A stretch of 50,168 nt of DNA from Desulfatiglandales bacterium (GCA_046498285.1 JAWOBA010000210.1:1-50168), one strand, 5' to 3'. Shown: positions 6,057 to 26,072, counted from the first letter of the stretch. Notes: generated by a model from the sequence alone, not told the origin. Numbers and translations: made by a program.

Positions 6057-6062
6057 CAGATA

Positions 6063-7601: not shown

Positions 7602-7750
7602 GAAGGAGCCGGAGGCAAGTTTTGTACTATCTGCTAGTTGTCTGATGTGTTTTCATGCAACAATTTCCAGCCCGCCGAGCAGATGAAAGCGTTACTGGCA
7701 GGTAAAAAACACAATAAACCCGACAGACTTTATTAAAGGGAGGATTTAAT

Positions 7751-8143: not shown

Positions 8144-8171
8144 TCCACCTTAAGGGAGGGCGGAAGATATT

Positions 8172-9050: not shown

Positions 9051-9052
9051 TA

Positions 9053-9894: not shown

Positions 9895-10117
9895 GAGACC
9901 TTTGAAAAACCCGGCGATTTTCACCATCACCAAAAAGACGATGGACTTTTTTGAAGTGACTGGTGGCTTCCGGCTCGTAGAGCCTCCCGCTCGGAGAGAA
10001 GGGTGCTGAAAAGACCAACCCGAGAGCCTCGGCCTCCGGCCCGGAGGGCCTACGCCCCGGAGGGAACTGAAAAAAAGCCCATTGTCTTTAGATCAATAGG
10101 GGTTATGCAAAGGTCTC
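9895..10117 (+). repeat. GAGACCTTTG-TIR hairpin repeat (MITE-like), copy A: 159-nt core plus two 32-nt inserts
   Basis: Starts GAGACCTTTGAAAAACCCGGCGATTTTCACCATC and ends GGGGTTATGCAAAGGTCTC (10-nt perfect terminal inverted repeat). The internal AAAAAGACGATGGACTTTTTT is complementary to AAAAAAGCCCATTGTCTTT. Inserts at 9967-9998 and 10033-10064 relative to copy C. Confidence 0.85.
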
Positions 10118-10172
10118 ACTTACCTGCGGGTATCTGTGACAATCTGCGTTCTATGTTGGAAAAGGATTAGAT

Positions 10173-10907
10173 ATGGAAGTTACCGTATTGGTGCAGGCCG
10201 TTTACAAGGCCTTTGAGATTTTGGAGAAGGGTGATAATAGTGCAAAGGCCCGAGAAGAGGCCAAGGCATTATTATACACTTCTGCAAAGTTTACCAGTGA
10301 AACAAAATCTCTCACAGAGAAACAAGAAGCCAGGGCTCTTCTCCTGTCTGCTAAGAAATCACGTTTAGCGCTGCGGAATTTTATTCTCACCTTCTTTATT
10401 TTATTTGCCTTCTGGATTTTGCTCTCAGGCCGTTTTGACTATTTTCATCTTACCCTTGGCGGTATCTGTTCTGTGCTTGTTGCATACCTATGCCATGATC
10501 TCTTATTTTTTAATATAAGGCTTGGAGACTTTAGGACAAGGGCCAAGAGATTTTTTTTCGCCGGCCCATGGTTCTTGGGCCAGATCTTTTCTGCAAACCT
10601 GCATGTGGCCTATCTGTCCCTATCCCCCAAGATGCCGATAGATCCTCAGATAATACGGTTTAAGACAAAACTAGAGAGTGACGTCTCATGGGTTGCTTTA
10701 GCCAACTCCATTACCCTCACTCCAGGCACCATTACCATAGATATAAGGGAAGGGGAGTTTTTTGTGCATGCCCTGGATAAAAAGGTTGCCTATGATCTCA
10801 ATACCGGAGAAATGGAAGATAAGATTGCCCACGTCATTATGGAGGCAGATCACGTATATATTCAGGATGTTTTAGATGTGGCGAGTATATTTGGGGCACT
10901 CAAATGA
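10173..10907 (+). CDS. mrpE: Mrp antiporter subunit E (MnhE family) with ~65-aa N-terminal extension
   Basis: The core FILTFFILFAFWILLSG...ANSITLTPGTITIDI...FFVHALD matches the MnhE pattern. ATG 10173 has RBS AAGGA. The first ~65 aa are hydrophilic and helical-looking (EEAKALLYTSAKF...). Confidence 0.85.
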   Translation: MEVTVLVQAVYKAFEILEKGDNSAKAREEAKALLYTSAKFTSETKSLTEKQEARALLLSAKKSRLALRNFILTFFILFAFWILLSGRFDYFHLTLGGICSVLVAYLCHDLLFFNIRLGDFRTRAKRFFFAGPWFLGQIFSANLHVAYLSLSPKMPIDPQIIRFKTKLESDVSWVALANSITLTPGTITIDIREGEFFVHALDKKVAYDLNTGEMEDKIAHVIMEADHVYIQDVLDVASIFGALK

Positions 10908-11380
10908 TCAGTATCTCAGATGATATTATTATAAGAACAGTATCAAGGATATTTGTGCCATTTATTCAGATTTACGCACTCTATGTTATTATGCACGGTC
11001 ATCACAGCCCAGGAGGAGGCTTTCAGGGGGGTGTTATCTTGGGCGCCAGTTTTATTCTATATCTTATAACACATGGCCTTGAAGATGCAAAAGAAAGGAT
11101 GTCTGAGCTCAAAGCAGCCCTCTTTAGCTCTTTTGGTGTATTAATCTATTCAGGAATCGGATTGTTGTGTCTCATTAAGGGAAGTAATTATTTGGATTAT
11201 GGAAGCCTGGCTACCCTCTTAAATGTAATACCTTCTCAGGCACGCTCTCTTGGTATTCTCGGGGTTGAAATCGGGGTTGGAATTGCTGTAATGGCAGTCA
11301 TGTTTTCCATCTTTTTTGACATATCCACAGGAGGAATTCTTCCTGAGGATGAGGAAGGTTTAGGGGAAAAAGATGAGTAA
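10904..11380 (+). CDS. mrpB: Mrp antiporter subunit B (MnhB domain)
   Basis: Hallmark HGHHSPGGGFQGGVILG (compare GHNAPGGGFVGG of Bacillus MrpB). ATGA overlap with mrpE. Confidence 0.85.
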   Translation: MISISDDIIIRTVSRIFVPFIQIYALYVIMHGHHSPGGGFQGGVILGASFILYLITHGLEDAKERMSELKAALFSSFGVLIYSGIGLLCLIKGSNYLDYGSLATLLNVIPSQARSLGILGVEIGVGIAVMAVMFSIFFDISTGGILPEDEEGLGEKDE

Positions 11381-11639
11381 CTTTTTATTATGTCTTGGAA
11401 TAGGTCTATTTACCCTTGTATTTCTATGTCTATATAGAGGTATATTTGGACCAGGGGTACTCAACAGGATTGCAGCAATCTCTGCGATTGGTACCAAGAC
11501 CCTGGTTATTCTTTTAATTACGGGCTTTATCTACAATAGAGTAGATATGTTTATAGATATCAGCATGGTCTATGCCCTGCTTAATTTTATTGGCACAATC
11601 ACCGCAGCCAAATACCTGGAGATAGGGGGGGAAGTCTAA
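11373..11639 (+). CDS. mrpF: Mrp antiporter subunit F
   Basis: 88 aa. LYRGIFGPGVLNRIAAISAIGTK...DISMVYALLNFIGTITAAKYL fits the MrpF/PhaF pattern. 8-nt overlap with the upstream gene. Confidence 0.85.
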   Translation: MSNFLLCLGIGLFTLVFLCLYRGIFGPGVLNRIAAISAIGTKTLVILLITGFIYNRVDMFIDISMVYALLNFIGTITAAKYLEIGGEV

Positions 11640-11956
11640 TGGATCTCTCCCATATAGTTGCTATTCCGTTTTTTCTTGCAGGGTTCTTTTTCTTTTTAGC
11701 GGCAACAGTTGGGCTTTTACGCTTTCCCGATTTTTACTGCCGCCTTCATGCCACAGGAAAAGGTGATACCCTTGCAGTTCTTTTATCTCTTATTGGCCTC
11801 AGCATCTATGAGGGATTTTCCATTACAAGCTTGAAGATAATCTTTATCGCGGTATTTATGTTCCTTGCCCAGCCTACCTCTACCCATGCCATTTCCAGGG
11901 CTGCCATGAGATGCGGTCTGAAGCCATGGGTTAAAAACAAGGAGAAGATAAAATGA
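11639..11956 (+). CDS. mrpG: Mrp antiporter subunit G
   Basis: GLLRFPDFYCRLHATGKGDTLA and AQPTSTHAISRAA are MnhG/PhaG hallmarks. TAATG overlap with mrpF. Confidence 0.9.
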   Translation: MDLSHIVAIPFFLAGFFFFLAATVGLLRFPDFYCRLHATGKGDTLAVLLSLIGLSIYEGFSITSLKIIFIAVFMFLAQPTSTHAISRAAMRCGLKPWVKNKEKIK

Positions 11957-12198
11957 TAGTAGCCTTTGATTTCATACTCCTGCTTTTTGTTATCATATGT
12001 GCTATAGCTGCAATTTCAGTTAAAGATCTTTTAAGCGCTGTATATATACTTGGTGCATATAGTTTTTTTATGTGTCTTTTATGGACAGAGATGGGTGCTG
12101 TGGATGTTGCCTTTACTGAGGCATCTGTGAGTGCAGGTGTAGGGACAGTATTATTTATTGCAGCAGTAAGTAAAACGAAAAGGAGGAGTAAAGATTGA
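11953..12198 (+). CDS. MbhD-like / DUF4040 protein (equivalent to part of the MrpA C-terminal domain)
   Basis: 81 aa. AVYILGAYSFFMCLLWTEMGAVDVAFTEASVSAGVG matches the DUF4040 motif (..APDVALTEAAVG..). ATGA overlap with mrpG. Confidence 0.8.
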   Translation: MIVAFDFILLLFVIICAIAAISVKDLLSAVYILGAYSFFMCLLWTEMGAVDVAFTEASVSAGVGTVLFIAAVSKTKRRSKD

Positions 12199-12476
12199 GG
12201 TTATTAGCGCTTATTACTGTAATTGTTACAGGGATAATACTTATTTATGGTACCGTAGACATGCCTGACTGGGGTGATCCAAATTCCCCTGCAAGTAAAC
12301 ATGTTTCTCCTGAGTATATTGAACAGGCATTTGAAAAGACAGCTACGCCAAATATAGTTACCGCAGTTCTTGCAGACTACAGGGGCTATGACACCCTTGG
12401 AGAGACTACGGTAATCTTTACTGCTGGAATTTCCTGTATTTTAATACTGAGAAAAAGAAGAAAAAAGAGAACATAA
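12195..12476 (+). CDS. MbhE-like protein (equivalent to the last MrpA C-terminal segment)
   Basis: TTG start overlapping the previous TGA (TTGA). NIVTAVLADYRGYDTLGETTVIFTAG is the DFRG.DT..E motif of the MrpA C-terminus and MbhE. Confidence 0.75.
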   Translation: MRLLALITVIVTGIILIYGTVDMPDWGDPNSPASKHVSPEYIEQAFEKTATPNIVTAVLADYRGYDTLGETTVIFTAGISCILILRKRRKKRT

Positions 12477-12618
12477 GAAAATTGCATTAGTCATTTGTCA
12501 GCTGGATTGTAAGTGTTTACGACTTGTTATGATTTCATCGCCTAAGGGTACGATAGCAAGGACAAACGAAATTAGGGATTTAGAAATTGAAAAACAACAC
12601 ATTCAACAAATATGAATC

Positions 12619-12999
12619 ATGTTCGACTTTATAGTGAGTAAATACAATTATTGGTTTTATATTATCCTGATGATGATAGGTTTTTATGCCATGATAGGCA
12701 AAAGAAACCTGGTCAAAAAGATTATAGGGATGAACCTGTTTCAGACTGCGATTATCCTTTTTTTTATATCCACCGCTGCAAAGAGGGGAGGAACATTACC
12801 TATTATTGAGCATGGACATGGTCATGGAGGCGATGCTATTCAAGCTGCAGCGTACATAAATCCTTTACCGCATGTGCTTATGCTTACTGCTATAGTGGTC
12901 ATGGTCAGTACTTTAGGAGTTGCCCTGGCAATAGTAATAGCTATTTACAGGAGGCATAATACATTAGAAGAAGATGAGATTTTATGGCAACAGAAATGA
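12619..12999 (+). CDS. mrpC: Mrp antiporter subunit C (NuoK-like)
   Basis: 126 aa. GMNLFQTAIILFFI, INPLPHVLMLTAIVV and YRRHNTLEEDE fit the MnhC/NuoK-like pattern. Contains a His-Gly loop EHGHGHGG. Confidence 0.85.
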   Translation: MFDFIVSKYNYWFYIILMMIGFYAMIGKRNLVKKIIGMNLFQTAIILFFISTAAKRGGTLPIIEHGHGHGGDAIQAAAYINPLPHVLMLTAIVVMVSTLGVALAIVIAIYRRHNTLEEDEILWQQK

Positions 13000-14486
13000 T
13001 TTCCCAGTCTCCTATTTTGGTGGTTGTTATCCCCCTGATCTTCGCATTTCTTACCCTTCTCTTTGGTTGGTTTAGACGTGATATCTGTTATCCAATTACG
13101 GTAGTGGCTCTCTTTCTTTCCTTCCTTGCATCGCTTCAGACATTACATATTGTTATTACCACGGGAACAATCCACTACTATCTTGGGAGCTGGAAGCCTC
13201 CTTGGGGCATAGAATATGCGGTTGATCATCTCAATGCCTTTGTTCTGGTCATCGTATCATTTGTTTCCCTTATGGTGGCTATATATTCGAAGAGAAGTGT
13301 AGAGCAGGAATTACCAGAAAAGATTGTCTTTTTTTATTGTATTTTTCTCCTCCAGGTCACAGGTTTTTTAGGGATCGTGATAACCGGTGATATGTTTAAT
13401 CTCTATGTATTCTTAGAGATTGCATCCCTTGCAGGATATGCCCTGATAGCCATAGGAGAAGATGGTGCACCCTTTGCCAGCTTTAATTATGTGATCTTTG
13501 GTACTATTGGTGCATGCTTTTACCTGCTTGGCGTGGGCTACCTTTATATAGTTACCGGGTCACTTAATATAGCAGACCTGTCTCAGATATTACCCAACCT
13601 CTATAATTCTAAGGTGGTGTTGGTTGCCTTTGCCTTTTTTTTGGTGGGCGTGAGCCTAAAGATGGCACTTTTCCCTTTACATGTATGGCTTCCGGATGCC
13701 TATACCTATGCTCCATCAACAGTAAGTGCCCTTCTTGCCCCCCTGATGACCAAAGTAGGGGCATACGTAATGATACGGGTAATGTTTACGGTATTTGAGC
13801 CATATTTTTCTATAGAATTGATTCCCGTGACCACCATTCTCGGGTGGATGGCTGCAGGAGCCATACTTTATGGTGCGATATTAGCCTTGGCACAGATTGA
13901 CCTAAAAAGGATGCTAACATATATATTGGTAAGTGAAGTTGGATACATTACATTAGGTGTGGGCCTTGCAAACAGGAATGGACTTACAGGGGCTATCCTC
14001 CATATCCTCAATGATGCCTTTATGATGCTTGCCCTTTTTTTGGTTGTGGGTGCCATTATGTATCGGTCTGGTAAAAGAGAAATTCCTCAACTAAGGTATC
14101 TTCATAGAAAGATGCCATTTACTATGGCCATTTTTGTCATAGCGGCGCTTTCCGTGATAGGGATTCCACCGACGTGCGGTTTTTTTAGCAAATGGTATCT
14201 TATCCTTGGTGCCATTGATGCAAATAAGTGGATTTTTGTGGCGGTGTTGCTGGTTAGCAGCCTGTTGAATGTTGTACTCTTTTTCAGATGTATAGAGAAC
14301 GCGTACCTTGAGCCAATGGCTGAACATTCCAGTGTAGGATCAGAATTGGCTATCACACGTGATGAGTCTCCTTTAAGCATGCTTATACCATTATTTATTG
14401 CAGGAGCAGGAATACTATTATTTGGTGTACTGAGTGGAAAGATTATCTCTACGATAATTCAATTTGCTCTTCCTGCGGGTATTTAG
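12984..14486 (+). CDS. mrpD: Mrp antiporter subunit D (NuoM/N-class antiporter-like subunit)
   Basis: Proton_antipo_M hallmarks: FLEIASL, LFPLHVWLPDAY, TKVGAY, GFFSKWYL. The alternative start ATG 12996 forms an ATGA overlap with the mrpC stop and may be the true start. Confidence 0.9.
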   Translation: MATEMISQSPILVVVIPLIFAFLTLLFGWFRRDICYPITVVALFLSFLASLQTLHIVITTGTIHYYLGSWKPPWGIEYAVDHLNAFVLVIVSFVSLMVAIYSKRSVEQELPEKIVFFYCIFLLQVTGFLGIVITGDMFNLYVFLEIASLAGYALIAIGEDGAPFASFNYVIFGTIGACFYLLGVGYLYIVTGSLNIADLSQILPNLYNSKVVLVAFAFFLVGVSLKMALFPLHVWLPDAYTYAPSTVSALLAPLMTKVGAYVMIRVMFTVFEPYFSIELIPVTTILGWMAAGAILYGAILALAQIDLKRMLTYILVSEVGYITLGVGLANRNGLTGAILHILNDAFMMLALFLVVGAIMYRSGKREIPQLRYLHRKMPFTMAIFVIAALSVIGIPPTCGFFSKWYLILGAIDANKWIFVAVLLVSSLLNVVLFFRCIENAYLEPMAEHSSVGSELAITRDESPLSMLIPLFIAGAGILLFGVLSGKIISTIIQFALPAGI

Positions 14487-14624
14487 AGATTCAGTTGAGG
14501 ATTATACAATGTATTGGAAAGACTACCATTTTTCTCGCTCTTTATTTTTGTTCCTAACAGTATTCAATTGTTTTATCCTTCTCCCGCAATACTGCTGGAG
14601 GAAGCAAAGCGGATCTATGTTCTA

Positions 14625-16118
14625 ATGGACTCGATAGTTTCTATAAAGCCATTATTGGCTGTTCTGGTAACATTAATAGGTTCCCTGTTTATCATTTTTA
14701 CAGGTGAAAGAAACAGAAATTTACGCGAATTCTGGACTATTCTTGCCTCTATAATTAAGTTTTCTATTGTTCTTTCCATGGTTCCCTTTATTTTAGATGG
14801 AAAGGTATTAGAGTTTACCATTATATTACTTGCACCTGGGGTCTCACTGCAGTTCAGGGTGGACCAGTTTGGTATGTTTTTTGGTGTTCTGGCGTCTGGT
14901 TTATGGATTGTAACCTCCGTCTATTCCATAGGATATGTCAGGGGATTGAAAGAACATGCTCAAACACGGTATTTTTTTAACTTCGCCCTCTGTCTTTCAG
15001 CAACCATGGGTATCGCCTTTGCAGGCAATCTCCTAACCCTTTTTATATTCTATGAAATGCTCACAGTAGCTACCTATCCATTGGTGGCCCATAAAGAAAC
15101 CGAGGCTGCCATCATGGGTGGGAGGAAATACCTTGCCTACACACTTATAGCAGGTGTAGTGATCCTATTTGCCATAGTCTTTATCTATACCCTTACAGGA
15201 AGCCTTGACTTCAAACCCGGTGGCTTTCTTTCAGGTCACGGTTCTCCCGTCACACTTATATTCCTGTTTGTTATGCTTATATTAGGTTTTGGTGTCAAGG
15301 CTGCTATCATGCCTATGCATGAATGGTTGCCTACTGCGATGGTAGCCCCAACTCCTGTAAGCGCCCTCCTCCATGCTGTAGCAGTAGTCAAGGCAGGTGT
15401 TTTTGGCTGTTTGCGGATTATTCTTTATGTTTTCGGTCCGACACTTCTCCATGAACTTGATCTGTGGCTTATATTGGCATATTTTGCTGCATTCACTGTG
15501 ATTGTTTCTGGCCTCTATGCACTTGCCCAGGATAATCTTAAAAGAAGACTTGCCTTTTCTACCATAAATAACTTATCCATCATCGTTATGGGCGCTGCAC
15601 TGCTCACCCCAAGCGCTATAACCGGGAGCATATTTCATATTGGAAGCCATGGTTTTATGAAGATTACCCTATTTTTTGTTGCCGGGGCCATCTATGTGAA
15701 AACTCATAAAGAAAATATCAGTGAACTCGATGGACTTGGCAGGCAGATGCCGTTAACCTTTGGGGCATTTGCCATCTGTGCGATGGGTGTGGCAGGAACC
15801 CCACCAGTGTGCGGATTTATTAGTAAATGGTATTTAGCATTGGGTTGCCTTGAGGCTAAGCAGGTTGTATTTCTTTTTGTTTTGCTCATAAGCGCCCTTT
15901 TGGATATAGCCTACTTTTTTCCAATAATCTATAACGCATTCTTTAAAATACCTGAAGAAGACACCAACCCACATTTTGATGAGGCCCCAATGATGATGCT
16001 AATTCCCCTGATGATAACAGCGATTATTTCACTTATATTGGGAATATTTCCCAATGCCTTTTTTAATTTCTTTAACATAGCTTCTCTGGCCGCTGAGAAG
16101 ATATTAGGAGGGATGTAG
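14625..16118 (+). CDS. Second MrpD-like antiporter subunit
   Basis: The ORF opens at TTG 14514, but the first ATG (14625, MDSIVSIKPLLAVLV) gives a typical N-terminus. Hallmarks: FYEMLTV, MPMHEWLPTAM, VVKAGVFG, HGFMKITLFFVAGA, GFISKWYL. Confidence 0.85.
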   Translation: MDSIVSIKPLLAVLVTLIGSLFIIFTGERNRNLREFWTILASIIKFSIVLSMVPFILDGKVLEFTIILLAPGVSLQFRVDQFGMFFGVLASGLWIVTSVYSIGYVRGLKEHAQTRYFFNFALCLSATMGIAFAGNLLTLFIFYEMLTVATYPLVAHKETEAAIMGGRKYLAYTLIAGVVILFAIVFIYTLTGSLDFKPGGFLSGHGSPVTLIFLFVMLILGFGVKAAIMPMHEWLPTAMVAPTPVSALLHAVAVVKAGVFGCLRIILYVFGPTLLHELDLWLILAYFAAFTVIVSGLYALAQDNLKRRLAFSTINNLSIIVMGAALLTPSAITGSIFHIGSHGFMKITLFFVAGAIYVKTHKENISELDGLGRQMPLTFGAFAICAMGVAGTPPVCGFISKWYLALGCLEAKQVVFLFVLLISALLDIAYFFPIIYNAFFKIPEEDTNPHFDEAPMMMLIPLMITAIISLILGIFPNAFFNFFNIASLAAEKILGGM

Positions 16119-16331
16119 ATGGTAAGGAAATTAAAATATCTATTTTTTATTAGCTGTGGCGTGAGTATGTTGCTTGGACTATTTATACCACATGACCATG
16201 TCCATTTTTGGTGGGAAAAGATCCCTATCTTTGATGCACTATTTGGATTTTTTGGCTGCATTCTGATTGTACTGGGCTCAAAGGCATTAGGCCATCACGG
16301 GATCCAGAAAGATGAGGATTACTATGATTGA
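16119..16331 (+). CDS. Small (70 aa) two-TM protein, unassigned family, partner of the downstream NuoL-class subunit
   Basis: ATG directly follows the previous stop, with RBS GGAGGGA. Two hydrophobic helices. Paralog of 18478-18687 (shared FI.HDHV.F.W.KIP...A.FG and C-terminal K.ED.YD). Its stop overlaps the next start (ATGATTGA). Confidence 0.7.
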   Translation: MVRKLKYLFFISCGVSMLLGLFIPHDHVHFWWEKIPIFDALFGFFGCILIVLGSKALGHHGIQKDEDYYD

Positions 16332-18180
16332 TATAGTGCCTCCTGCCTTTATATTTATTCTTGGTGCAATTCTCCTTCCCCTTTTTCAGGGGAGAAGACT
16401 GAGACAGATTTTTCAGCTCCTTATTCCTCTGATAGCCTTCATAGATCTCCTCTATATGCCTAAAGGTACTTACTGGGTCTATAATTTTCTGGGATATGAC
16501 CTTATCCTTGGCAGGGTAGATAAGCTCAGCATGTGTTTTGGATATGTGTTTGTCATTGTTGCCTTTTTGGGAATGATTTATGCTCTCCATGTAAGGGAAG
16601 TTGGGCAGCATACCGCCGCTTTTCTTTATATAGGGAGCACCCTTGGAGTTACATTTGCCGGCGATATATTTACCCTGTTTGTTTTTTGGGAAATTATGGC
16701 TGTATCCTCCGTATTTCTCATTTGGTATCAAAGAGATAAAGCAGCCCTTGATGCCGGATTCAGGTATATTATGGTTCATATATTCGGCGGTTGTGCTCTT
16801 TTGGCTGGCATTCTTATACATGTATCAAATACAGGATCCACACAATTTGGTTTTATAGAGTATGGAGGACTTGGTTCTCAACTCATACTCCTTGGTTTTA
16901 TCATCAATGCTGCTGTACCCCCTTTTCATGCCTGGCTTTCTGATGCCTATCCAGAGGCCACTGTCACCGGAAGTGTGTTCTTGACAGCCTTTACTACTAA
17001 AAGTGCTGTATATGTGCTTTTAAGGACTTTCCCCGGCGTTGAACTCCTGGTCTGGTTGGGGGCCATTATGGCGTTATATGGTGTGGTATATGCGGTTCTT
17101 GAAAATGATATTAGAAGACTTCTTGCATACCATATCATCAGTCAGGTTGGGTATATGGTATGTGGGGTGGGTTTAGGAACCGAAATGGCCATAAATGGTT
17201 CCACCGCACATGCCTTTTCCCATATTTTATACAAGGCCCTGCTTTTCATGGGCGCTGGAGCAGTAATTTATGTAACAGGAAGAAGAAAACTCACTCAACT
17301 GCAGGGGAGAAACTTATACAAGAAAATGCCTATCTGTCTCTCTCTGTATATGATAGGTGGTTTTTCTATTTCTGCGGTCCCACTCTTCAATGGCTTTATA
17401 AGTAAAACTATGGTTGTTGCTGCAACCGGTGAGTTGCATAGACCTATCATACACCTGCTATTACACTTGGCATCCATAGGGACATTCCTCCATACAGGCC
17501 TGAAGCTTCCCTATGGCATTTGGTTTGGCAGGACTCCTGAGGGAGAAAAAATTGAAGAGGAAGAGATAGAGGCTACTGAGCCTCCCTTGAATATGCTGAT
17601 AGCCATGGCTATGACCGCCTTTTTGTGTACCTTAACAGGTGTTTATCCCAAGATACTTTACGATATCCTTCCTTATCCTGTACATTATCATCCTTACACA
17701 GTAAAACATGTAGTTGGGATGATGCAGCTATTACTGCTAACGGCTGGTGCATTTTGGCTTTATATAGATAAACTTGGCGGTGAACCTAAGGTTAGCGTTG
17801 ACACAGATTGGTTCTACAGAAAGCCAAGTGTACTTCTACTTTGGTTTGTCAGTAATCCATTGCAGGACCTCAGGCTTAAACTACAGGGTTTTTTTACCAC
17901 AATGGTGGCAAACATTGCAAGTCTGAGTAAAAATCCCATTTTACTCCCCGAGATAACAGTAAGGTATTTTCACCTGAAAATTATCAATAGGATTTATCAA
18001 GCATCTGATGCATATAAGGATAAACGAGGCGAGCTAAAAGAATTGGAATCCAAACTCGCTGCGCTAAAAGAAATGAGATACGATGAAAATGTATACCGAA
18101 GGCCCATAGGTCTTGGTGTACTTGTTGCAATAATCCTATTGTTTATTTATGGTTTGATCTATCTTATTAGATTACATTAA
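16324..18180 (+). CDS. NuoL/MrpA-class antiporter-like subunit (618 aa) with C-terminal helix plus TM anchor
   Basis: Start set at ATG 16324 (MIDIVPPAFIFILGA) by analogy with its paralog. Hallmarks: WEIMAV, WLSDAYPEA, FTTKSAVY, HAFSHILYKALLFMGAG, GFISK. The C-terminal ~135 aa are amphipathic or coiled stretches ending in YRRPIGLGVLVAIILLFIYGLIYLI. Confidence 0.85.
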   Translation: MIDIVPPAFIFILGAILLPLFQGRRLRQIFQLLIPLIAFIDLLYMPKGTYWVYNFLGYDLILGRVDKLSMCFGYVFVIVAFLGMIYALHVREVGQHTAAFLYIGSTLGVTFAGDIFTLFVFWEIMAVSSVFLIWYQRDKAALDAGFRYIMVHIFGGCALLAGILIHVSNTGSTQFGFIEYGGLGSQLILLGFIINAAVPPFHAWLSDAYPEATVTGSVFLTAFTTKSAVYVLLRTFPGVELLVWLGAIMALYGVVYAVLENDIRRLLAYHIISQVGYMVCGVGLGTEMAINGSTAHAFSHILYKALLFMGAGAVIYVTGRRKLTQLQGRNLYKKMPICLSLYMIGGFSISAVPLFNGFISKTMVVAATGELHRPIIHLLLHLASIGTFLHTGLKLPYGIWFGRTPEGEKIEEEEIEATEPPLNMLIAMAMTAFLCTLTGVYPKILYDILPYPVHYHPYTVKHVVGMMQLLLLTAGAFWLYIDKLGGEPKVSVDTDWFYRKPSVLLLWFVSNPLQDLRLKLQGFFTTMVANIASLSKNPILLPEITVRYFHLKIINRIYQASDAYKDKRGELKELESKLAALKEMRYDENVYRRPIGLGVLVAIILLFIYGLIYLIRLH

Positions 18181-18477
18181 GTCTTCAAAAAAAAGACTTT
18201 GCTATACTCCATATCAGTGATTCGGTAACTTGGATAATGGAATATTGCTGGTAGAAAGGGATGTTATCAATTATGTTGGTTTTTGATTTTATCCGCATGT
18301 TTTTCTGCCTGCCCTCCCTATTATATCGGGATAGACGGGCGTCAGGCTGGGCTTGATTGATCACGATGCTGGATAGATATCACTTATCCTGATATTCCAT
18401 AATTCCAAAAATCTAATTGTGGTGAAGGCACGAAGTTTGCCCTATATTGTGATTACTGTACATAAAGGGAGTCCAAT

Positions 18478-18687
18478 ATGAAAAGGATACTTAAAGGCTT
18501 ATTTATTCTATTGGCTGTGGTATCTATCCCGGTTGGATTTTTTATTAGGCATGACCACGTTGTCTTTTTTTGGCACAAAATTCCATCAGTTGAGGCGGTT
18601 TTTGGAGTTATTGGGGCCTTCGTATTGATAGCGGCTACAGCGATACTGTCTTCCTTTGCACAAAAGAAGGAGGATTTCTATGATTAA
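18478..18687 (+). CDS. Small (69 aa) two-TM protein, paralog of 16119-16331
   Basis: ATG with RBS AGGGAG. MKRILKGLFILLAVVSIPVGFFIRHDHVVFFWHKIPSVEAVFG. Stop overlaps the next start (ATGATTAA). Confidence 0.7.
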   Translation: MKRILKGLFILLAVVSIPVGFFIRHDHVVFFWHKIPSVEAVFGVIGAFVLIAATAILSSFAQKKEDFYD

Positions 18688-20443
18688 GGCCATCCCACCT
18701 AGCTTTGTATTTATCCTCGGGGCAATGCTAATTCCTTTTTTGAAAGGAAGAGTTAAACAGCTGTATATGCTTATGGTTCCTGTAGTGGCATTTTTAGATA
18801 TTGCATATCTTCCTTCAGGCACAAGCTGGATATATAACTTTTTAGGATATGATCTCATATTTTGCAAGGTTGATAAACTGAGCCTGATAGTAGGGTATAT
18901 ATTTATCATTATAGCTTTTTTAGCCATACTATATAGCCTGCATTTAAAACAGGATGGGCAGCATATAGCAGCCTTCCTGTATGTAGGGAGTTCTTTAGGA
19001 GTAGTCTTTGCGGGAGATTATTTCAGCTTATTTGCCTTCTGGGAAATTATGGCTGTGGCGTCTGTATTCCTCATATGGTTTAAAAAAGATAAGGATTCTC
19101 TGAATGCCGGCTTTAGGTATATTTTGATGCACATATTTGGCGGCTGTTGCCTGTTAACTGGCATTATTATTTATACGGTCAGCAAAGGATCTATTGCTAT
19201 AGACCTTTTTGAACCCAGTGCTGCCTATTGGTTTATACTTGTTGGGTTTGGACTCAACACCGCTTTTATCCCTATTCATACATGGTTACCAGATGCCTAT
19301 CCTGAGGGAACCATCACCGGGAGTGTGTTTCTTTCTGTTTTTACTACAAAAACAGGTGTCTATGTATTGGCAAGGTGTTTTTCAGGTGTGGAATTGGTAG
19401 CTTACATGGGTGGCATTATGGCAGTATACGGTGTTATATTTGCGTTACTGCAAAATGATGCTCGAAGACTGCTTGCCTACCATATTATCAGCCAGGTGGG
19501 ATATATGGTGGCAGGTGTTGGAGTGGGAACGGCGCAGGGGGTAAATGGCGGAATGGCTCATGTCTTTAACCACATTTTATATAAGGCACTCCTCTTTATG
19601 TGTATGGGCTCGGTTATGTATATGACAGGAAAAAGAAAATTAACCGACATGGGAGGATTAGCAAAGTTTATGCCTGTTACATGTATCACCTTTGTCATAG
19701 CTGCGCTTTCAATTTCTGGGGCCCCAGGCTTTAATGGATTTATAAGCAAGGGGATGGTTATAGCCTCTACGGTAGAGGCACACATGCCAGTATTAGAGCT
19801 CATGTTGACTCTGGCATCTGTAGGAACATTCCTTTCTTTTGTGAAGCTTGGCTATTTTGCCTTCTTTGCTGATAATCCCGATATAACATCCAAGGAGGCT
19901 CCCTTCAATATGCAACTGGCAATGGGCTTGACTGCCTTTTTGTGTGTCTTCATCGGTCTTTACCCTAACATACTCTTTGACCTGCTTCCTTACAGCGTGA
20001 TTGATTATCACCCTTTTACCCTTTCCCACATATTTGGTGTTATTCAACTATTTTTGTTAGCCGGAATAGGGTTTATATTAGCCAAAGCCATGGTTGTGCC
20101 TCACAGGGCAACTATTTTAGATTTTGACTATTTCTATCGAATGGGAGGAAGGGGCCTGATATGGTTATCTACTGTGCCTATGAGCAGATTTAGATCCGCA
20201 TTGCAGGAGAGCTTTTCTAGGGCGGTATACATCATTGCTCGTTTAGCCAAAAACCCCATCTCGATTCTCGAAATACCAACAGCATATATTTATTTAAGAA
20301 TCACAAAAGGGCTGAGATATGTCAGCGGGTATTCTTCTGGTGAAACGTATAATGAAGGTCTATATCGAAGACCTATAGGTGTTGGAGTTCTTATAGCCAT
20401 TATAATGCTTTTTGTGTTTGCTTTGATTTATTTTATTTTTTAA
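18680..20443 (+). CDS. NuoL/MrpA-class antiporter-like subunit (587 aa), paralog of 16324-18180
   Basis: ATG 18680 preceded by AAGGAGGA. MIKAIPPSFVFILGA. Hallmarks: WEIMAV, WLPDAYPEG, FTTKTGVY, HVFNHILYKALLFMCMG, GFISK. C-terminal tail ends in YRRPIGVGVLIAIIMLFVFALIYFIF. Confidence 0.85.
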   Translation: MIKAIPPSFVFILGAMLIPFLKGRVKQLYMLMVPVVAFLDIAYLPSGTSWIYNFLGYDLIFCKVDKLSLIVGYIFIIIAFLAILYSLHLKQDGQHIAAFLYVGSSLGVVFAGDYFSLFAFWEIMAVASVFLIWFKKDKDSLNAGFRYILMHIFGGCCLLTGIIIYTVSKGSIAIDLFEPSAAYWFILVGFGLNTAFIPIHTWLPDAYPEGTITGSVFLSVFTTKTGVYVLARCFSGVELVAYMGGIMAVYGVIFALLQNDARRLLAYHIISQVGYMVAGVGVGTAQGVNGGMAHVFNHILYKALLFMCMGSVMYMTGKRKLTDMGGLAKFMPVTCITFVIAALSISGAPGFNGFISKGMVIASTVEAHMPVLELMLTLASVGTFLSFVKLGYFAFFADNPDITSKEAPFNMQLAMGLTAFLCVFIGLYPNILFDLLPYSVIDYHPFTLSHIFGVIQLFLLAGIGFILAKAMVVPHRATILDFDYFYRMGGRGLIWLSTVPMSRFRSALQESFSRAVYIIARLAKNPISILEIPTAYIYLRITKGLRYVSGYSSGETYNEGLYRRPIGVGVLIAIIMLFVFALIYFIF

Positions 20444-20498: not shown

Positions 20499-20749
20499 GA
20501 GACCTTTGAAAAACCCGGCGATTTTCACCATCCACAAAAAGACGATGGACTTTTTTGAAGTGACTGGTGGAAGGGTGCTGTCTTTTCGTAATGTATCAGT
20601 GGGGGAACCCGCAGGCCCCGATTTATCGGGGCAATGCGGAGGGGGCAAAACTCCCCCATGGATACGTTGCTGAAAAGACCAGCCCGGAAGCCTCGGAACT
20701 GAAAAAAAGCCCATCGTCTTTAGATCAAAAGGCGTTATGCAAAGGTCTC
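20499..20749 (+). repeat. GAGACCTTTG-TIR hairpin repeat, copy B: core plus 92-nt nested insert
   Basis: Same termini as copy A (GAGACCTTTGAAAAACCCGGCGATTTTCACCATCC ... GCGTTATGCAAAGGTCTC). 20581-20672 is an extra GC-rich block absent from copy C. Confidence 0.85.
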
Positions 20750-21059
20750 GCAATAGGTTCGTTTTTCATATTATCGTTTTGTTCGAAGGAATCCAAATTC
20801 CATTTGGGTAAATTATTACAGCATATATTATGTAAGACTTTTACATGTTATAAAAAGCTAAAGATAGTTGATTTTTTTCTATATCTTGGGCATATTTTTA
20901 GTAATGGTTGTGTGGCCCCAAGATAATCTCATCTTAGAACGAATTTTTTGTTGTGGATGAAAAACATCAAAATCGATAGAAATAAGCCATGAAGAGACAG
21001 GAGCGCCAAAAATAGGAGGGTGAGGATATCCAAAATACGCTAGAAAAGGAGAGCAAGTT

Positions 21060-21905
21060 ATGGAAATCAAAAAGATGCTGTTTGTAACTGATTTTGAGGA
21101 ATTGTGGTTTGATGCCTTACGATCATTAATGGTACTTAGAGAAGCAGGTCTTGACCACGTTGTGCTCATGCACGTGATAGACCGGAGCATAGGTTATTAT
21201 ACTACGGACGAAAAGAAGCGCCTTACAGCAATGGCTGAAGTTCGTTTTGTGGATTGGGCTCAAAGTCTATTTGAGGAGGGCATGGAATGTGGATCGTATA
21301 TTGTGGTGGGAGATACTGTTTCTAAGGTTCTGGAAGCCGATAAAGAGGAAGAAGCAGACCTGATTGTAATCAGTCGTCAGAAGAGGACCAAACTGCAAAA
21401 GCTTTATATAGATTCTAAGACAATAGAATTAGTCAGAAAAGCTACAACACCGGTCTTGGTACATAAATACAAGTTAGAATCTGGCAAGGTGAATGATAAG
21501 GTGTTTGAGAGACCACTTTTGGCAACAGATTTTTCCCCTCCAGCTAACAGGGCGCTGGAGTTTTTAGTCAGTATTAAAGATACTATCAAAAAGCTACAGG
21601 TAATCCACGTTGAAACTGATAAAGATATGGCTGGCTTGGGGAAACGAGGTCTTATGAAGGTAGAAAGGGAGAAAAGGAAAAAGCTCGATGAATTATGCGA
21701 AGCCCTTGAAGAAGAAGGGATAGAAGCAGAATATCATCTTTATATCGGGGATTTCACCCAGATTGAAAATGCAGCCAGAGAACGTGATGCCACTCTCATT
21801 GCCACAGGGACAAGTGGAAAGAGTTCCTGGCAGGCGAGATGGTTGGGAAGTGTTTCTCAGCAGGTGGCAGAGGTATCAGAGTTGCCTACATTATTAGTTC
21901 CTTGA
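21060..21905 (+). CDS. Tandem universal stress protein (UspA-like) domain protein
   Basis: 281 aa, paralog of 8172-9050. The C-terminal half keeps a G-2x-G-9x-G-S type motif (GTSGKSSWQARWLGS) followed by LPTLLVP. RBS AAGGAGAG. Confidence 0.85.
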   Translation: MEIKKMLFVTDFEELWFDALRSLMVLREAGLDHVVLMHVIDRSIGYYTTDEKKRLTAMAEVRFVDWAQSLFEEGMECGSYIVVGDTVSKVLEADKEEEADLIVISRQKRTKLQKLYIDSKTIELVRKATTPVLVHKYKLESGKVNDKVFERPLLATDFSPPANRALEFLVSIKDTIKKLQVIHVETDKDMAGLGKRGLMKVEREKRKKLDELCEALEEEGIEAEYHLYIGDFTQIENAARERDATLIATGTSGKSSWQARWLGSVSQQVAEVSELPTLLVP

Positions 21906-22073
21906 TTAAGGGCAAGGAGGAGATTGCGATCAATATACCTGAAACTCAGGAATATGGTGGGATTTCAGTATATGTTGTTTTTCCATTGGAATCCTAGTTC
22001 GGGAAGTTGTAAAGATAAATATGATGCTCTAAGCAGATAAAATGATACCCTATTTATTGCAAGAAAGAATAAG

Positions 22074-23762
22074 ATGAGAAATATTTTAAACAATTCCAGC
22101 ATCGCTATCGTGGGGGGAGGCAGGGTCTGTAAGGCTATGCTTAAGATTGTAATGGGAGAGAATTTCCATCAGAAAATGGCCATCCTTGGCGTAGCAGATA
22201 TAAATTACCGGGCCGAGGGCCTGGTATATGCTAGAAAAAAAGGGATATTTACTACCCTTGACTACAGGGAATTGTATAAGATCGAAGGTCTGAATTTGAT
22301 AATCGAGATAACAGGTGATGATAAGCTACTGAATGAAATCAAGTTGACGAAACCAGCAAATGTAAGGCTAATAGACCACCTCGAGGCTATGTCAGTCTGG
22401 GATTTTCTTCAGATTGAAGAGCAAAGCGTGAGGAGTCAAAGAGAGTTAAGAGAACATATATGCGAGCCAGATAAGATCGAGAAGGAGTTTGTTCTATTCT
22501 CTTATCAGCTTTCCAGAATCGTAGAGGAAAGAACGAGGCATTTGCAGGAGGTGGAGAGAGGAATCGTAGAGAGGGAGAGGACCTTGTCACAGATAATAGA
22601 TGGAAATACTATACCCACCTTTGTAATAAACAAGGATCATATTGTAACCCACTGGAACAGGGCCTGTGAGAATTTAACCGGCTATAAGACCGAGGAGATA
22701 GTAGGAACCAATAAACAATGGTTACCCTTCAGGGGGGAAGAAAGGCCGATCATGGCCGATGTTATAGTAGATGAAATGGAGGAGGAGGAGATAGATAGAT
22801 ACTATGGCCACAGTTGGCGGAAATCAGCCCTTATAGAGGGCGCGTATGAGGCAGAGGAATTCTTTTCACACATCGGCAAAAAAGGCAAATGGCTCCTTTT
22901 TACGGCTTCACCGATTAGAGAAGCGGATGGAAAAATGGTGGGATCAATTCAAACCTTCTGGGATACAACAGAGCGTAGAGAGGCTAAAGAGGCATTGCAA
23001 AACGCCCACGATGACTTGGAGCAAAAAACGAAAGAACTTGAGCAGGCAAACCTAGAGCTAAAAAAACTTGATGAACTTAGATCTGCTTTTCTGGCAAATA
23101 TGTCCCATGAACTCAGAACCCCGCTCAATTCAATAATTGGTTATACAGAACTGCTCTTAGATAGGATAGATGGGGATGTTACCAACGAGCAAGAGAACAG
23201 CCTGACAAAGGTTCATAATAATGCTAAAAATTTACTCACCTTAATCAATGAAATTTTGGATATGTCCAGGATTGAATCTGGAAGAGTGGAATTGGACTTG
23301 AAGCCAGTCGATTTACAGGATATTATCCAGACAACTATTTCCAGCCTTGAACCAATGATAAACAAAAAGCCGTTGATTATAGAAACAGATTTTGAAGACA
23401 ATTTACCACTGGCATATGCAGACCCGAATAGGGTTAGGCAAGTGATAACAAATCTTCTGAGTAATGCCATTAAATTTACCTCGAAGGGTAGTATTAGCTT
23501 AAGTGCCAGATTATTTCAGACACCTGCATTCGTCGAGATCTGTGTTTCAGACACAGGCATGGGAATTAGAAAAGAGGATTTTGATAAGCTGTTTGATATG
23601 TTTACACCACTTGATACCTCAGCAACCCGTCAATATGGAGGGGTCGGCTTAGGGCTTAGTATCTGCAAAGGGTTGGTTGAAATGCAGGGTGGAAAAATCT
23701 GGGTTGAGAGTAAATATGGATTGGGAAGCAAGTTTTATTTTACGTTGCCTGTAAAAGAATAA
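22074..23762 (+). CDS. Sensor histidine kinase: Rossmann-like N-domain, PAS, classical HisKA and HATPase
   Basis: The first ~320 aa are paralogous to 3957-6056 (SIAIVGGGRVCKAMLKIV..., IPTFVINKDHIVTHWN). H-box MSHELRTPLNSI. ATPase boxes NLLSNAIKFT, DTGMGI, GVGLGLSI. Confidence 0.9.
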   Translation: MRNILNNSSIAIVGGGRVCKAMLKIVMGENFHQKMAILGVADINYRAEGLVYARKKGIFTTLDYRELYKIEGLNLIIEITGDDKLLNEIKLTKPANVRLIDHLEAMSVWDFLQIEEQSVRSQRELREHICEPDKIEKEFVLFSYQLSRIVEERTRHLQEVERGIVERERTLSQIIDGNTIPTFVINKDHIVTHWNRACENLTGYKTEEIVGTNKQWLPFRGEERPIMADVIVDEMEEEEIDRYYGHSWRKSALIEGAYEAEEFFSHIGKKGKWLLFTASPIREADGKMVGSIQTFWDTTERREAKEALQNAHDDLEQKTKELEQANLELKKLDELRSAFLANMSHELRTPLNSIIGYTELLLDRIDGDVTNEQENSLTKVHNNAKNLLTLINEILDMSRIESGRVELDLKPVDLQDIIQTTISSLEPMINKKPLIIETDFEDNLPLAYADPNRVRQVITNLLSNAIKFTSKGSISLSARLFQTPAFVEICVSDTGMGIRKEDFDKLFDMFTPLDTSATRQYGGVGLGLSICKGLVEMQGGKIWVESKYGLGSKFYFTLPVKE

Positions 23763-23787
23763 TGGTATTGCAAGAGACAAATAAAGA

Positions 23788-23946
23788 GAGACCTTTGAAA
23801 AACCTGGCGATTTTCACCATCCCCAAAAAGACAATGGACTTTTTTGAAGTGACTGGTGGAAGGGTGCTGAAAAGACCAGCCCGGGAGCCTCGGAACTGAA
23901 AAAAAGCCCATCGTCTTTAGATCAAGAGGGGTTATGCAAAGGTCTT
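23788..23946 (+). repeat. GAGACCTTTG-TIR hairpin repeat, copy C (159-nt core form)
   Basis: GAGACCTTTGAAAAACCTGGCGATTTTCACCATCC ... GGGGTTATGCAAAGGTCTT. The shortest copy that keeps all shared blocks; used as reference for inserts in A, B and E. Confidence 0.85.
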
Positions 23947-24066
23947 AAAGAGAATTCCATTATTCCATGGATTTCATAAAAATTAATCTGACTTCAAAGG
24001 GTTATGATATTTTACTGCGAAAATCGAAAGACACTAAACTTAAGCCAGATTTGAGAAAGAATAGGT

Positions 24067-24468
24067 ATGGATAATAAGGGAATTCAGAAAGGTTCATCAC
24101 AGAAAGTTTTAGTGGTTGAGGATAATCAGGATAACCGGGAGTTGGTAGTGAAGGTCTTGGAGCTTACCGGCTATCATGTAGTTGAGGCAGTTGATGGGAA
24201 AGAGGCTATAGAAAAAGCGAGGGCTGAGAACCCGGATCTGATTCTTATGGATCTTTTTATACCAAAGATAGATGGCTATGAGGTAACAAAAAGATTGAAG
24301 GGTGATAGAGATCTTAAGCATATTCCGATAATTGCACTCACTGCACATGCAATGAAAGGAGATATGGAAGTTGCCTTAGCCGCAGGTTGTGATGACTATA
24401 TGCCCAAACCCATTGATATCAAGGAATTGCCTAAGCAAATAAAACGCTTTCTTAAAAATAATCCATAA
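24067..24468 (+). CDS. Stand-alone CheY-like response regulator
   Basis: 133 aa. VLVVEDNQDNRE, DLILMDLFIPKIDG, ALTAHAMKGD, DDYMPKP. Confidence 0.9.
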   Translation: MDNKGIQKGSSQKVLVVEDNQDNRELVVKVLELTGYHVVEAVDGKEAIEKARAENPDLILMDLFIPKIDGYEVTKRLKGDRDLKHIPIIALTAHAMKGDMEVALAAGCDDYMPKPIDIKELPKQIKRFLKNNP

Positions 24469-24487
24469 TCTTTTTGTGGACATTGCA

Positions 24488-25657
24488 ATGAATAACGATA
24501 CCAAAATATTAATAGTGGATGATGATGCTGATACTGTTGAGTTACTGACCAAGAGGTTTCATGCTGAAGGTTATCACACCTCAGAGGCCTATGATGGTGA
24601 CCAGGCCCTGCAAAAGGTAAAGGAATATCAGCCTGACATAATACTATTAGATATAATGATGCCCAAAATAGATGGTTATGAGGTATGCAGAAGGCTAAAA
24701 AGTTCTGAAGATACCAGACATATTCCCGTTATCATGCTCACTGCGAAGGGAATGATACCTGATAAGGTTAAAGGATTGGACATTGGGGCAGACGATTATA
24801 TCGTAAAGCCCTTTGATTACCGAGAACTCTCACAAAGAGTCAGATACTGGATCTCAGTCAAGAAGGAGGTAGAAGAAAGATTAAGCGAGATAAAACACCT
24901 TGAACATGAACTCATCAAATCTGAAAGGTTAGCAGCTATTGGGCAAACTGTAGCAAGCCTTGCCCATTATGTAAAAAATATTCTGTTTGGTCTCAAGGGT
25001 GGCGTCTATTTGGTAAACGAAGCCCTGAAAGAAGATGACACCGATTCCATGAAGGATGGCTGGGAAATGGTAGAAAATAATATGGGTAGGATTTCTGGTC
25101 TGGTTCTCGATCTGCTTGAGTATTCCAGAGAACGCAAGCCAGAATATGAAAAATGTTTCCCCAACCGGATTGCAGATGAGGTCTGTACGCTCATGGAAGC
25201 GAGCGCAAAAGAATATGATATAGAGATTATTAAAGATTTTGATTCATCCATAGGTGAAGCAATTATGGACCCTAAAGGTACCCATCGCTGTTTGCTTGAC
25301 CTGGTTTCCAATGCAAGAGATGCCTGCATTCTCGATTCTGATGAAGAGAAAAAATGGGTAGTGCGAGTAAAAACACTTCTTGAAGCAGATGGCATGATTA
25401 GATTCGAGGTTTCTGATAATGGTTGTGGCATGGATGAAGAGGTCAAAAAGAAATTGTTTACCAGTTTCTTTACGTCCAAAGAGGGAAGGGGTACTGGGCT
25501 CGGGCTCCTGAATACTCAGAAAACAGTCAAGGAGAGTGGTGGAACCATCACTGTAAACACACAACTCGGAAGGGGATCGACGTTTACCTTACGGCTGCCA
25601 TATAGGGATATAGCGACATCGGGAGCAACCGGAAAAGAGAACACTAAATTTAAGTGA
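24488..25657 (+). CDS. Hybrid REC-histidine kinase (no PAS), paralog of 6063-7601
   Basis: The ORF opens at GTG 24476; ATG 24488 gives MNNDTKILIVDDDADT. Receiver motifs DIILLDIMMPKIDG and DDYIVKP. H-box LAHYVKNIL. ATPase boxes DLVSNARDA, DNGCGMD, GTGLGL. Confidence 0.88.
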   Translation: MNNDTKILIVDDDADTVELLTKRFHAEGYHTSEAYDGDQALQKVKEYQPDIILLDIMMPKIDGYEVCRRLKSSEDTRHIPVIMLTAKGMIPDKVKGLDIGADDYIVKPFDYRELSQRVRYWISVKKEVEERLSEIKHLEHELIKSERLAAIGQTVASLAHYVKNILFGLKGGVYLVNEALKEDDTDSMKDGWEMVENNMGRISGLVLDLLEYSRERKPEYEKCFPNRIADEVCTLMEASAKEYDIEIIKDFDSSIGEAIMDPKGTHRCLLDLVSNARDACILDSDEEKKWVVRVKTLLEADGMIRFEVSDNGCGMDEEVKKKLFTSFFTSKEGRGTGLGLLNTQKTVKESGGTITVNTQLGRGSTFTLRLPYRDIATSGATGKENTKFK

Positions 25658-25682
25658 AGAAATACTATAAGGAGGATACATC

Positions 25683-26072
25683 ATGAAGAAGGTTCTTACT
25701 GTTGACGATGATGTTGATATTAGAAAGGTTGTTTCAAAACTTGTGGAAAAAAGCGGCTATGAAGCCATTGAAGCCAAGAATGGTGTAGAGGGCATGAGTG
25801 CGGTCAGGGAGAATAAACCGGATTTGATTATTTTAGATATGTTGATGCCAAAAGAGAGTGGAATCAGGATGTATCATGAATTAAAGACCGAGGAATCTTT
25901 AAAAAGTATTCCTGTAATCGTGCTCTCTGCTATACCCCAAAAAAGCTTCCTTCGTTCCCAGAGAGTATTAGATGAATTTGCTGGTCAATCTGTGCCCGAA
26001 CCCGAAGCTTATATTGAAAAGCCAGAAGAACCCCAGGAACTAATCGCATTGATGAAAAAAATTTTAGGATAA
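25683..26072 (+). CDS. Stand-alone receiver-domain response regulator, paralog of 7751-8143
   Basis: 129 aa. TVDDDVD, DLIILDMLMP, YIEKP. RBS AAGGAGG. Confidence 0.9.
   Translation: MKKVLTVDDDVDIRKVVSKLVEKSGYEAIEAKNGVEGMSAVRENKPDLIILDMLMPKESGIRMYHELKTEESLKSIPVIVLSAIPQKSFLRSQRVLDEFAGQSVPEPEAYIEKPEEPQELIALMKKILG

Follow-up and report, generated by a model that had tools for sequence, protein, structure and literature searches.

A family of small, unannotated two-helix membrane proteins encoded with an MrpA-N-like pump subunit in Mrp and green complex I operons, and a second copy of the gene pair in a Desulfatiglandales bacterium

The subunit inventories of Mrp antiporters and complex I, two textbook energy-converting machines, are considered complete. 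The locus described here lies in a stretch of 50,168 nucleotides (nt) from a Desulfatiglandales bacterium (GCA_046498285.1, JAWOBA010000210.1:1-50168; hereafter the window, meaning the whole stretch of DNA analysed), in which positions 16,119 to 20,443 hold two copies of a two-gene module, each made up of an open reading frame (ORF) for a protein of about 70 amino acids (aa) with two transmembrane (TM) helices and of an overlapping gene for a large antiporter-like subunit. The large-gene product of this small+large module, which is of the NCBIfam NF009310 class, is labelled L*, and labels such as L001, L037 and L103 denote loci from other genomes in the comparison sets. In the green complex I of rhizobia and in Complex_I_3 of Ca. 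Manganitrophaceae, the place of NuoL is taken by a pair of MrpD-like subunits, MrpD1 and MrpD2 (Degli Esposti & Martinez-Romero 2016, as cited in PMC9040806); MrpD2 carries a lateral helix, and the insertion of this helix that accommodates extra pumps is described in PMC9040806. Green complex I shares L* (57% identity), the small ORF and the ATGATTGA junction between the two genes with the window, whereas a Nuo redox or quinone module is missing from the window, which holds a stand-alone Mrp operon with two small+L* modules. Group-3 Mrp (PMC8415708, PMC7784846, PMC5703873) has the same set of mrpE, F, G, B, MbhD/E-like, C and D-type genes and likewise no full-length mrpA; its descriptions comprise seven subunit kinds, the 70-aa partner not being included, and the "subunit D" of the window is MrpA-N-like with a lateral helix. 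In addition, "nuoL/nuoM-like" genes beside mrp were noted in Nitrospira (PMC7784846, PMC12342949), and the names mrpH and mnhH for an eighth Mrp subunit do not occur in the literature searched.

Among solved complexes, MbsH' of the membrane-bound sulfane reductase (MBS) of Pyrococcus furiosus (6U8Y chain X) has a common plan with L*, namely TM1-14, TM15, a loop, helix HL and TM16 (PMC7684303). A homologue of the small protein is lacking in MBS, where MbsH' is docked by its TM15 side to MbsM, part of a redox module that is absent from the window. MbhI of the membrane-bound hydrogenase (MBH; 6CFW) is likewise a small membrane subunit accompanying an antiporter-like subunit, but it carries the lateral helix (PMC7684303). 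In the window the helix belongs to L*; the small protein, a plain hairpin, does not match MbhI at E<=10. Short hydrophobic proteins that are encoded within an operon, stabilise its large pump subunit and long escaped annotation include NdhP and NdhQ of cyanobacterial NDH-1, KdpF and CydX. These have one TM helix, whereas the small protein of the window is a two-TM hairpin with a conserved, predicted cytoplasmic tail, and no relation of the small protein to known families or folds was detectable in PDB, Pfam, NCBIfam and Foldseek searches.

The module consists of the following features.

16119-16331, + strand: small1, a 70-aa two-TM hairpin protein of an unannotated family (AlphaFold2 (AF2) model with a predicted local distance difference test (pLDDT) score of 87; ratio of nonsynonymous to synonymous substitution rates (dN/dS) 0.15)
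16314-16331, + strand: coupling junction 1, read from the sequence, with GAGGA at 16314-16318, the large1 ATG at 16324-16326 and the small1 TGA at 16329-16331
16324-18180, + strand: large1 (L*), 618 aa, NF009310 family, MrpA-N/NuoL-like (704 bits against a cutoff of 564; AF2 and Foldseek)
18007-18069, + strand: charged stretch of ~17-25 residues inserted into the distal part of the large1 lateral helix (absent from large2 and from orthologues of single-pair loci)
18478-18687, + strand: small2, a 69-aa paralogue of small1 (dN/dS 0.20)
18669-18687, + strand: coupling junction 2, read from the sequence, with GGAGG at 18669-18673, the large2 ATG at 18680-18682 and the small2 TAA at 18685-18687
18680-20443, + strand: large2 (L*), 587 aa, NF009310 family, a divergent paralogue of large1 (706 bits; 51% identity to large1)

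A preliminary description of the window, made from its sequence alone, had taken the two small ORFs for paralogues with two hydrophobic helices each, and this proved correct, as small1 and small2 are both two-helix proteins sharing 44% identity (E 6e-19). They belong to a family that spans Bacteria and Archaea, with 1,312 representative clusters (50% identity) at E<=1e-3 in an exhaustive profile search and, with a second profile, no fewer than 3,889 at 90% identity; the best 150 matches listed are all stand-alone proteins of 43-119 aa. The source names of members are "hypothetical protein" almost everywhere, and the stray JGI names NuoA and AtpI attached to a few of them are without Pfam support. 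Neither small1 nor small2 matched any family in Pfam or NCBIfam, and across 109 diverse members only scattered sub-threshold TM matches were obtained in these databases. A PDB profile search with the small protein returned no MBH, MBS, Mrp or complex I chain at E<=10, the best match (E 0.057) being an unrelated quinol oxidase subunit; Foldseek found no match to the hairpin model, and hhalign of the small protein against every other subunit of the operon gave probabilities of at most 1.3%. The earlier remark that no described subunit corresponds to the ~70-aa protein therefore holds for PDB sequences, folds, Pfam, NCBIfam and the operon itself. MbhI, NuoA and the other known small subunits of Mrp, MBH, MBS and complex I were rejected as identities for it, being without sequence or fold similarity.

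In the AF2 model the small protein is a helical hairpin with helices at residues 2-22 and 38-62 and a 15-residue loop that includes a short helix. From the distribution of charges, the N-terminal RKLK and the tail are predicted to be cytoplasmic and the loop periplasmic (N-in/C-in). Conserved positions are W32, I35, P36, F38, A40, G43, F44, G46, C47, K55 and the tail E66-D-Y-Y, and the family as a whole features a W-x-x-I-P turn on the predicted periplasmic side, a glycine-rich second helix (FGFxGC), a Lys at the cytoplasmic boundary and an acidic-aromatic tail, K/R-E-D-Y-Y-D. The loop His residues vary among family members, with a single H left in the consensus, and neither helix contains a conserved buried charged residue. 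By the Nei-Gojobori method, dN/dS is 0.15 for small1, 0.20 for small2, 0.18 as the family median and 0.125 for the large gene, values that indicate purifying selection on the small family. Thousands of homologues evolving at a ratio of about 0.18 answer in the affirmative the question, raised in the preliminary description, of whether the small ORFs have conserved and selected relatives. In Photobacterium proteolyticum the small protein (L207 9672-10004) is 110 aa long, overlaps the L* gene by 4 nt and bears a ~35-residue low-complexity charged C-terminal extension after its DYYE motif.

The linkage of small and large genes was assessed in four independent genome samples drawn from 185,579 species representatives, and it is obligate from the side of the small gene. 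All 71 small genes with enough downstream DNA that were found with the small-protein seed are followed by L*, and so are the 65 of 65 found with a second small-subfamily seed; in both samples L* is a 560-650-aa Proton_antipo_M gene lying immediately downstream. In the reverse direction, a seed from the L* C-terminus gave at least 580 loci, and in the best 80 of these 78 of the 81 N-complete L* genes have a small gene no more than 400 nt upstream; with a Photobacterium L* seed, a small gene lies upstream of all L* genes (76/76). Two divergent representatives of the small family, looked up directly, show the same small-then-L* arrangement. The genome-neighbourhood comparison that had been proposed as a check on the module thus came out in its favour. 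At L037, L043 and L046 the operon begins with the small+L* pair, so the partner of the small protein is L* and not the preceding pump. The two partners also diverge together, with their pairwise distance matrices correlated at r=0.87 against a permutation null maximum of 0.13.

The pairing extends to the layout of the gene junction. In the window the overlaps are the 8-nt sequences ATGATTGA at 16324-16331 and ATGATTAA at 18680-18687, and a Shine-Dalgarno (SD)-like GAGGA or GGAGG is located 5-6 nt before each large ATG, within Glu-Asp codons of the small ORF. This common stop/start layout, already noted for the two junctions of the window, recurs in other genomes, where 82 of 117 unique pairs overlap by 8 nt, 10 by 11 nt and four by 4 nt. 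In a further 19 of the 117, mostly from anaerobic methanotrophic archaea (ANME) and Methanosarcinales, the genes are 4-280 nt apart and the KEEDYY(E/D)K tail is still kept; because it persists in these gapped pairs, the tail is a feature of the protein and not only the SD sequence and start of the next gene. No small-large fusions are present among ~390 listed homologues. The N-terminus of L* is predicted from charge to lie outside, QGRRLRQ following TM1, and with the C-terminus of the small protein inside a fusion would be topologically impossible, which fits the absence of fusions. A programmed frameshift or fusion of the two products was rejected on these grounds, that is, no fused homologue, separate genes in archaea and termini predicted on opposite sides of the membrane.

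The large proteins, large1 (618 aa from ATG 16324) and large2 (587 aa from ATG 18680), are 51% identical and score 704.5 and 705.9 bits, respectively, with NF009310 (PRK12668), "Na+/H+ antiporter subunit D", whose curated cutoff is 564. The motifs that the preliminary description had assigned to the conserved Glu of TM5, Lys of TM7, His/Lys of TM8 and Lys of TM12 are present; E123, K226, K304 and K361 are invariant in 43 L* homologues, and MbsH', MbhH and MrpA have their TM5/TM7/TM8/TM12 signatures at the aligned positions. The AF2 model of large1 (pLDDT 81.5) comprises a 14-TM core, TM15 at 460-480, long helices at 496-583 (~88 residues) and a terminal TM at 588-617, and its best Foldseek matches over more than 600 columns are MrpA (7QRU, 6Z16), NuoL/NdhF and MbsH', the last of which is also the best PDB match of L* by sequence. 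The lateral helix of L* is amphipathic and 60-90 residues long. The NuoL/MrpA class first proposed for the large proteins is thus confirmed by model and fold search, and L* is, as modelled, an MrpA-N/NuoL-type pump carrying its own lateral helix, so that the name "subunit D" is misleading. That the small protein makes up for an N-terminal helix lacking in L* could be rejected, as L* aligns with MrpA from residue ~13 and has all 16 helices.

The module occurs in two operon contexts. The Mrp-type gene order is mrpE-F-G-MbhD-B-C-D-D-small-L*, and the complex I-type order is nuoD-(E-F-G)-H-I-J-K-MrpD-small-L*-nuoM-nuoN. Among 241 unique pairs, 86 are in a complex I context and 26 in an Mrp context, with flanks too short to assign the other 129, and these counts are biased by the search seeds. 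Complete complex I operons with small+L*, delineated by Pfam, were found in cultured Photobacterium proteolyticum and in one metagenome-assembled genome of Desulfobacterota. On pSymA of Sinorhizobium meliloti (L287 6427-13619), in the operon for the second complex I of this species, the genes run nuoJ, nuoK, "cation/H+ antiporter subunit D family", a hypothetical protein, "Na+/H+ antiporter subunit D", nuoM, nuoN and nuoA-G. This operon and that of Photobacterium are examples of green complex I. The hypothetical protein (84 aa) is a member of the small family (hhalign 99.7%), and its ORF ends in a ...GAGGACTACTATGATTGA junction, the 8-nt overlap being identical to the ATGATTGA of the window. 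The L* of pSymA is 57% identical to large1, which exceeds the identity between large1 and large2. The same small-ORF DNA is present on pSymA of strain 1021 (NC_003037.1 850443-850941) and on 74 rhizobial plasmids. Judged by its sequence, large1 is an orthologue of MrpD2 of green complex I, the copy in the window standing in an Mrp operon and not in a nuo operon. The preliminary description had framed the module as specific to Mrp, and this framing did not stand, because small+L* belongs just as much to green complex I, whose MrpD2 is the large protein (PMC9040806).

Two loci depart from these orders. In one Desulfobacterota complex I operon ending in small-L* (L203/L204 2583-3056), a gene for a cyclic nucleotide monophosphate-binding domain lies between nuoG and nuoH. 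In the Mrp-type cluster of ANME-1 locus L029 (3682-13587; JANJFQ010000001.1), four MrpD-type genes precede small and L*, after which comes one more, distant MrpD-like gene, giving up to six antiporter-like subunits in a row.

Taken on sequence evidence, the small protein is probably a dedicated accessory subunit of the MrpA-N-like pump L*. A conserved and selected family that is obligately paired with L* in group-3 Mrp, green complex I and Manganitrophaceae Complex_I_3 suggests a missed subunit, and from gene linkage, translational coupling and co-divergence we infer that the small protein associates with L*. The preliminary description had spoken of a dedicated stoichiometric partner; the dedicated pairing is supported by these three lines of evidence, whereas physical binding, a 1:1 stoichiometry, the site of binding and the assembly of four pumps are parts of the model that we infer. 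The small protein would be made in step with L* through termination-reinitiation coupling, would pack against it via the glycine-rich TM2, and would hold its acidic-aromatic tail on the cytoplasmic face, at the start of the lateral helix, where it may stabilise or cap L* as the distal pump. One and the same module would then serve Mrp antiporters and green complex I, in the latter as MrpD1-small-MrpD2 in place of NuoL.

Some observations weigh against an accessory subunit that had been overlooked. MbsH', the closest solved relative of L* by sequence, works without a small partner (PMC7684303). Three of the 81 L* genes have no recognisable small gene, these being second copies in ANME-1 loci L098, L103 and L129, and L* can therefore exist without the small protein. 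As to the ANME-1 second copies themselves, in Methanophagales an ORF of 90-116 aa (L103 4906-5175, L129 4776-5123) precedes the second L* where no small-family ORF is found, and it resembles the distal lateral helix and terminal TM of L*; the equivalent ORF in L098 encodes a very diverged two-TM protein (E 0.11).

The alternative that survives best is that the small protein acts as an assembly or membrane-insertion factor for L*, for instance by holding the N-out TM1 or the lateral helix, and is not retained in the mature complex. The same linkage, coupling and co-divergence would be expected of such a factor, and the solved relatives (Mrp, MBS and complex I) function without the small protein; however, the tight 1:1-style coupling and the joint acceleration of both partners in the second pair of the window fit a permanent interface better, and we regard this alternative as rather unlikely. 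A role in gating or in the ion path, in which the periplasmic His/Trp loop or the boundary Lys would help H+ or Na+ to enter or leave the distal pump and alter coupling stoichiometry or ion specificity, could be read from the conservation of W32, I35, P36, K55 and E66 and from the exclusive association of the small protein with the pump class that is used where extra pumps are added. Such a role is quite improbable, given that the loop His is variable across the family, that L* itself has a complete canonical charge chain and that the small helices offer no conserved buried charge. Finally, a small ORF serving mainly as a translational leader that brings ribosomes to the L* start, with a dispensable peptide, would account for the placement of the L* SD sequence and ATG within the conserved E-D-Y-Y-D codons and for the 8-nt overlap as the commonest layout, but it is very improbable in view of a dN/dS of 0.15-0.2 across the whole small ORF, the conservation of TM2 and loop residues distant from the junction, the retention of the tail motif and the whole protein in the 19 pairs with separated genes, and conservation spanning Bacteria and Archaea.

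New to annotation databases is a widespread, unrecognised small partner of the pump class common to group-3 Mrp and green complex I; in the window the module has, in addition, a second, lineage-specific copy. The text of PMC9040806 contains no small or hypothetical gene between MrpD1 and MrpD2, and an earlier mention in the primary papers is possible. If the small protein is a subunit, it bears on how a distal pump is held whose lateral helix is anchored non-covalently, on the assembly of 5- or 6-ion complex I variants, and on the annotation of "Na+/H+ antiporter subunit D" (NF009310). The idea lends itself to direct tests, since S. meliloti, which is genetically tractable, and cultured Photobacterium species carry the module.

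The second pair is restricted to the closest Desulfobacterota relatives of the window (L001-L017, L063, L064). For the small proteins, identity is 40% between pair 2 and pair 1, 31% between pair 2 and the rest and 46% between pair 1 and the rest; for the large proteins the corresponding values are 52%, 46% and 57%. Pair 2 is therefore nearest to pair 1, yet fast-evolving in both partners together, and a neighbour-joining tree places it basally, probably owing to long-branch attraction. An origin by duplication in place, as put forward in the preliminary description, is plausible from these sequence comparisons; the proximity to pair 1 and the narrow clade speak for it, and the fast divergence and the basal position in the tree speak against it. 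The spacer between the pairs measures 6 to ~610 nt among relatives, so the two pairs are likely to be co-transcribed.

Helix HL length and insertions have been reported to track pump number, making room for an extra pump (PMC7684303, PMC9040806). Large1 of two-pair lineages carries a discrete charged insertion of 17-25 residues in its lateral helix that is absent from large2, and the tail following DxDWFYR is 119 residues long in the first L* of two-pair clusters, 100 in the second and 87-110 in single-pair Mrp. The extra helix length of large1 weakly suggests that both L* copies may reside in one four-pump complex. Two points tell against this: L018/L019 have a partial helix insertion with only one pair seen on the contig, and four-pump complex I contexts have short tails of ~95 residues; the helix-length argument is for that reason no more than suggestive. 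An earlier version of it, in which the 31-residue length difference between the two large proteins was taken as a single insertion of large1 equal to the width of one pump, was rejected, as the discrete part is ~17-25 residues and the correlation with pump number is imperfect.

In a broader and rather doubtful reading, the small protein would be a universal adaptor that clamps or caps a portable, Mrp-derived distal pump, pluggable onto Mrp, complex I and archaeal Fpo/Mrp-like complexes, and stackable. On this view a single Mrp complex of the window would combine four pumps, of which two carry lateral helices, with two small partners, an architecture that, if real, is unrepresented among solved structures.

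Upstream of small1 the operon contains the following genes, all on one strand and mostly overlapping.

10173-10907, + strand: mrpE, first gene of the operon (Pfam PF01899 MNHE, E 1.6e-34)
10904-11380, + strand: MrpB-type subunit with an MnhB domain (Pfam PF04039, E 1.5e-29)
11373-11639, + strand: mrpF (Pfam PF04066)
11639-11956, + strand: mrpG (Pfam PF03334, E 3e-26)
11953-12198, + strand: MbhD-like subunit, 81 aa, the first part of the MrpA C-terminal domain as a gene of its own (PF13244, E 8.6e-20)
12195-12476, + strand: MbhE-like subunit, 93 aa, the second part of the MrpA C-terminal domain as a gene of its own (PF20501, E 1.9e-11)
12619-12999, + strand: mrpC, NuoK-like (Pfam PF00420, E 9e-20)
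12984-14486, + strand: MrpD-type antiporter-like subunit, 500 aa (PF00361, E 4e-60)
14625-16118, + strand: second MrpD-type subunit, 497 aa from ATG 14625 (PF00361; orthologues 495-498 aa)

The TAG stop of the second MrpD-type pump abuts the ATG of small1 (16116-16121). A mechanical ORF list gives longer versions from ATG 16312 (large1), TTG 18656 (large2) and TTG 14514 (second MrpD-type subunit), which are probably not real starts, the family alignment favouring ATG 16324, 18680 and 14625; for the large genes, 16324 and 18680 are preferred because of the family-conserved N-terminus MI..PP and an NF009310 alignment that begins at model position 3. No full-length mrpA is present in the operon, the MrpA C-terminal domain being divided between the separate PF13244 and PF20501 ORFs, and no redox module was found by Pfam near the operon, whose flanks contain only universal stress (Usp) and two-component proteins. 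Because it is without mrpA and has several mrpD-like genes, in agreement with the definition in PMC8415708, the region 10173-20443 is classified by sequence as a single group-3 Mrp (CPA3) operon of predicted antiport function, which codes for four pump subunits and for both small partners.

Rfam gave no match anywhere in the window, and a promoter and terminator scan of the window produced signal at background level. An intergenic repeat of ~170-260 nt is present in four copies (9895-10118, 20499-20750, 23788-23947 and 49422-49613), two of which bracket the mrp operon. The element is bounded by 10-bp terminal inverted repeats (GAGACCTTTG...CAAAGGTCTC); its arms are conserved, whereas its G+C-rich middle varies. 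It is itself without an Rfam match and may be an element resembling miniature inverted-repeat transposable elements or a shared regulatory element. Both flanks of the operon (3957-9817 and 21060-26072) contain paralogous sets of PAS histidine kinase, response regulator and universal stress protein genes, for instance 4054-4353 and 22168-22467 at 71% and 7884-8103 and 25813-26032 at 73%.

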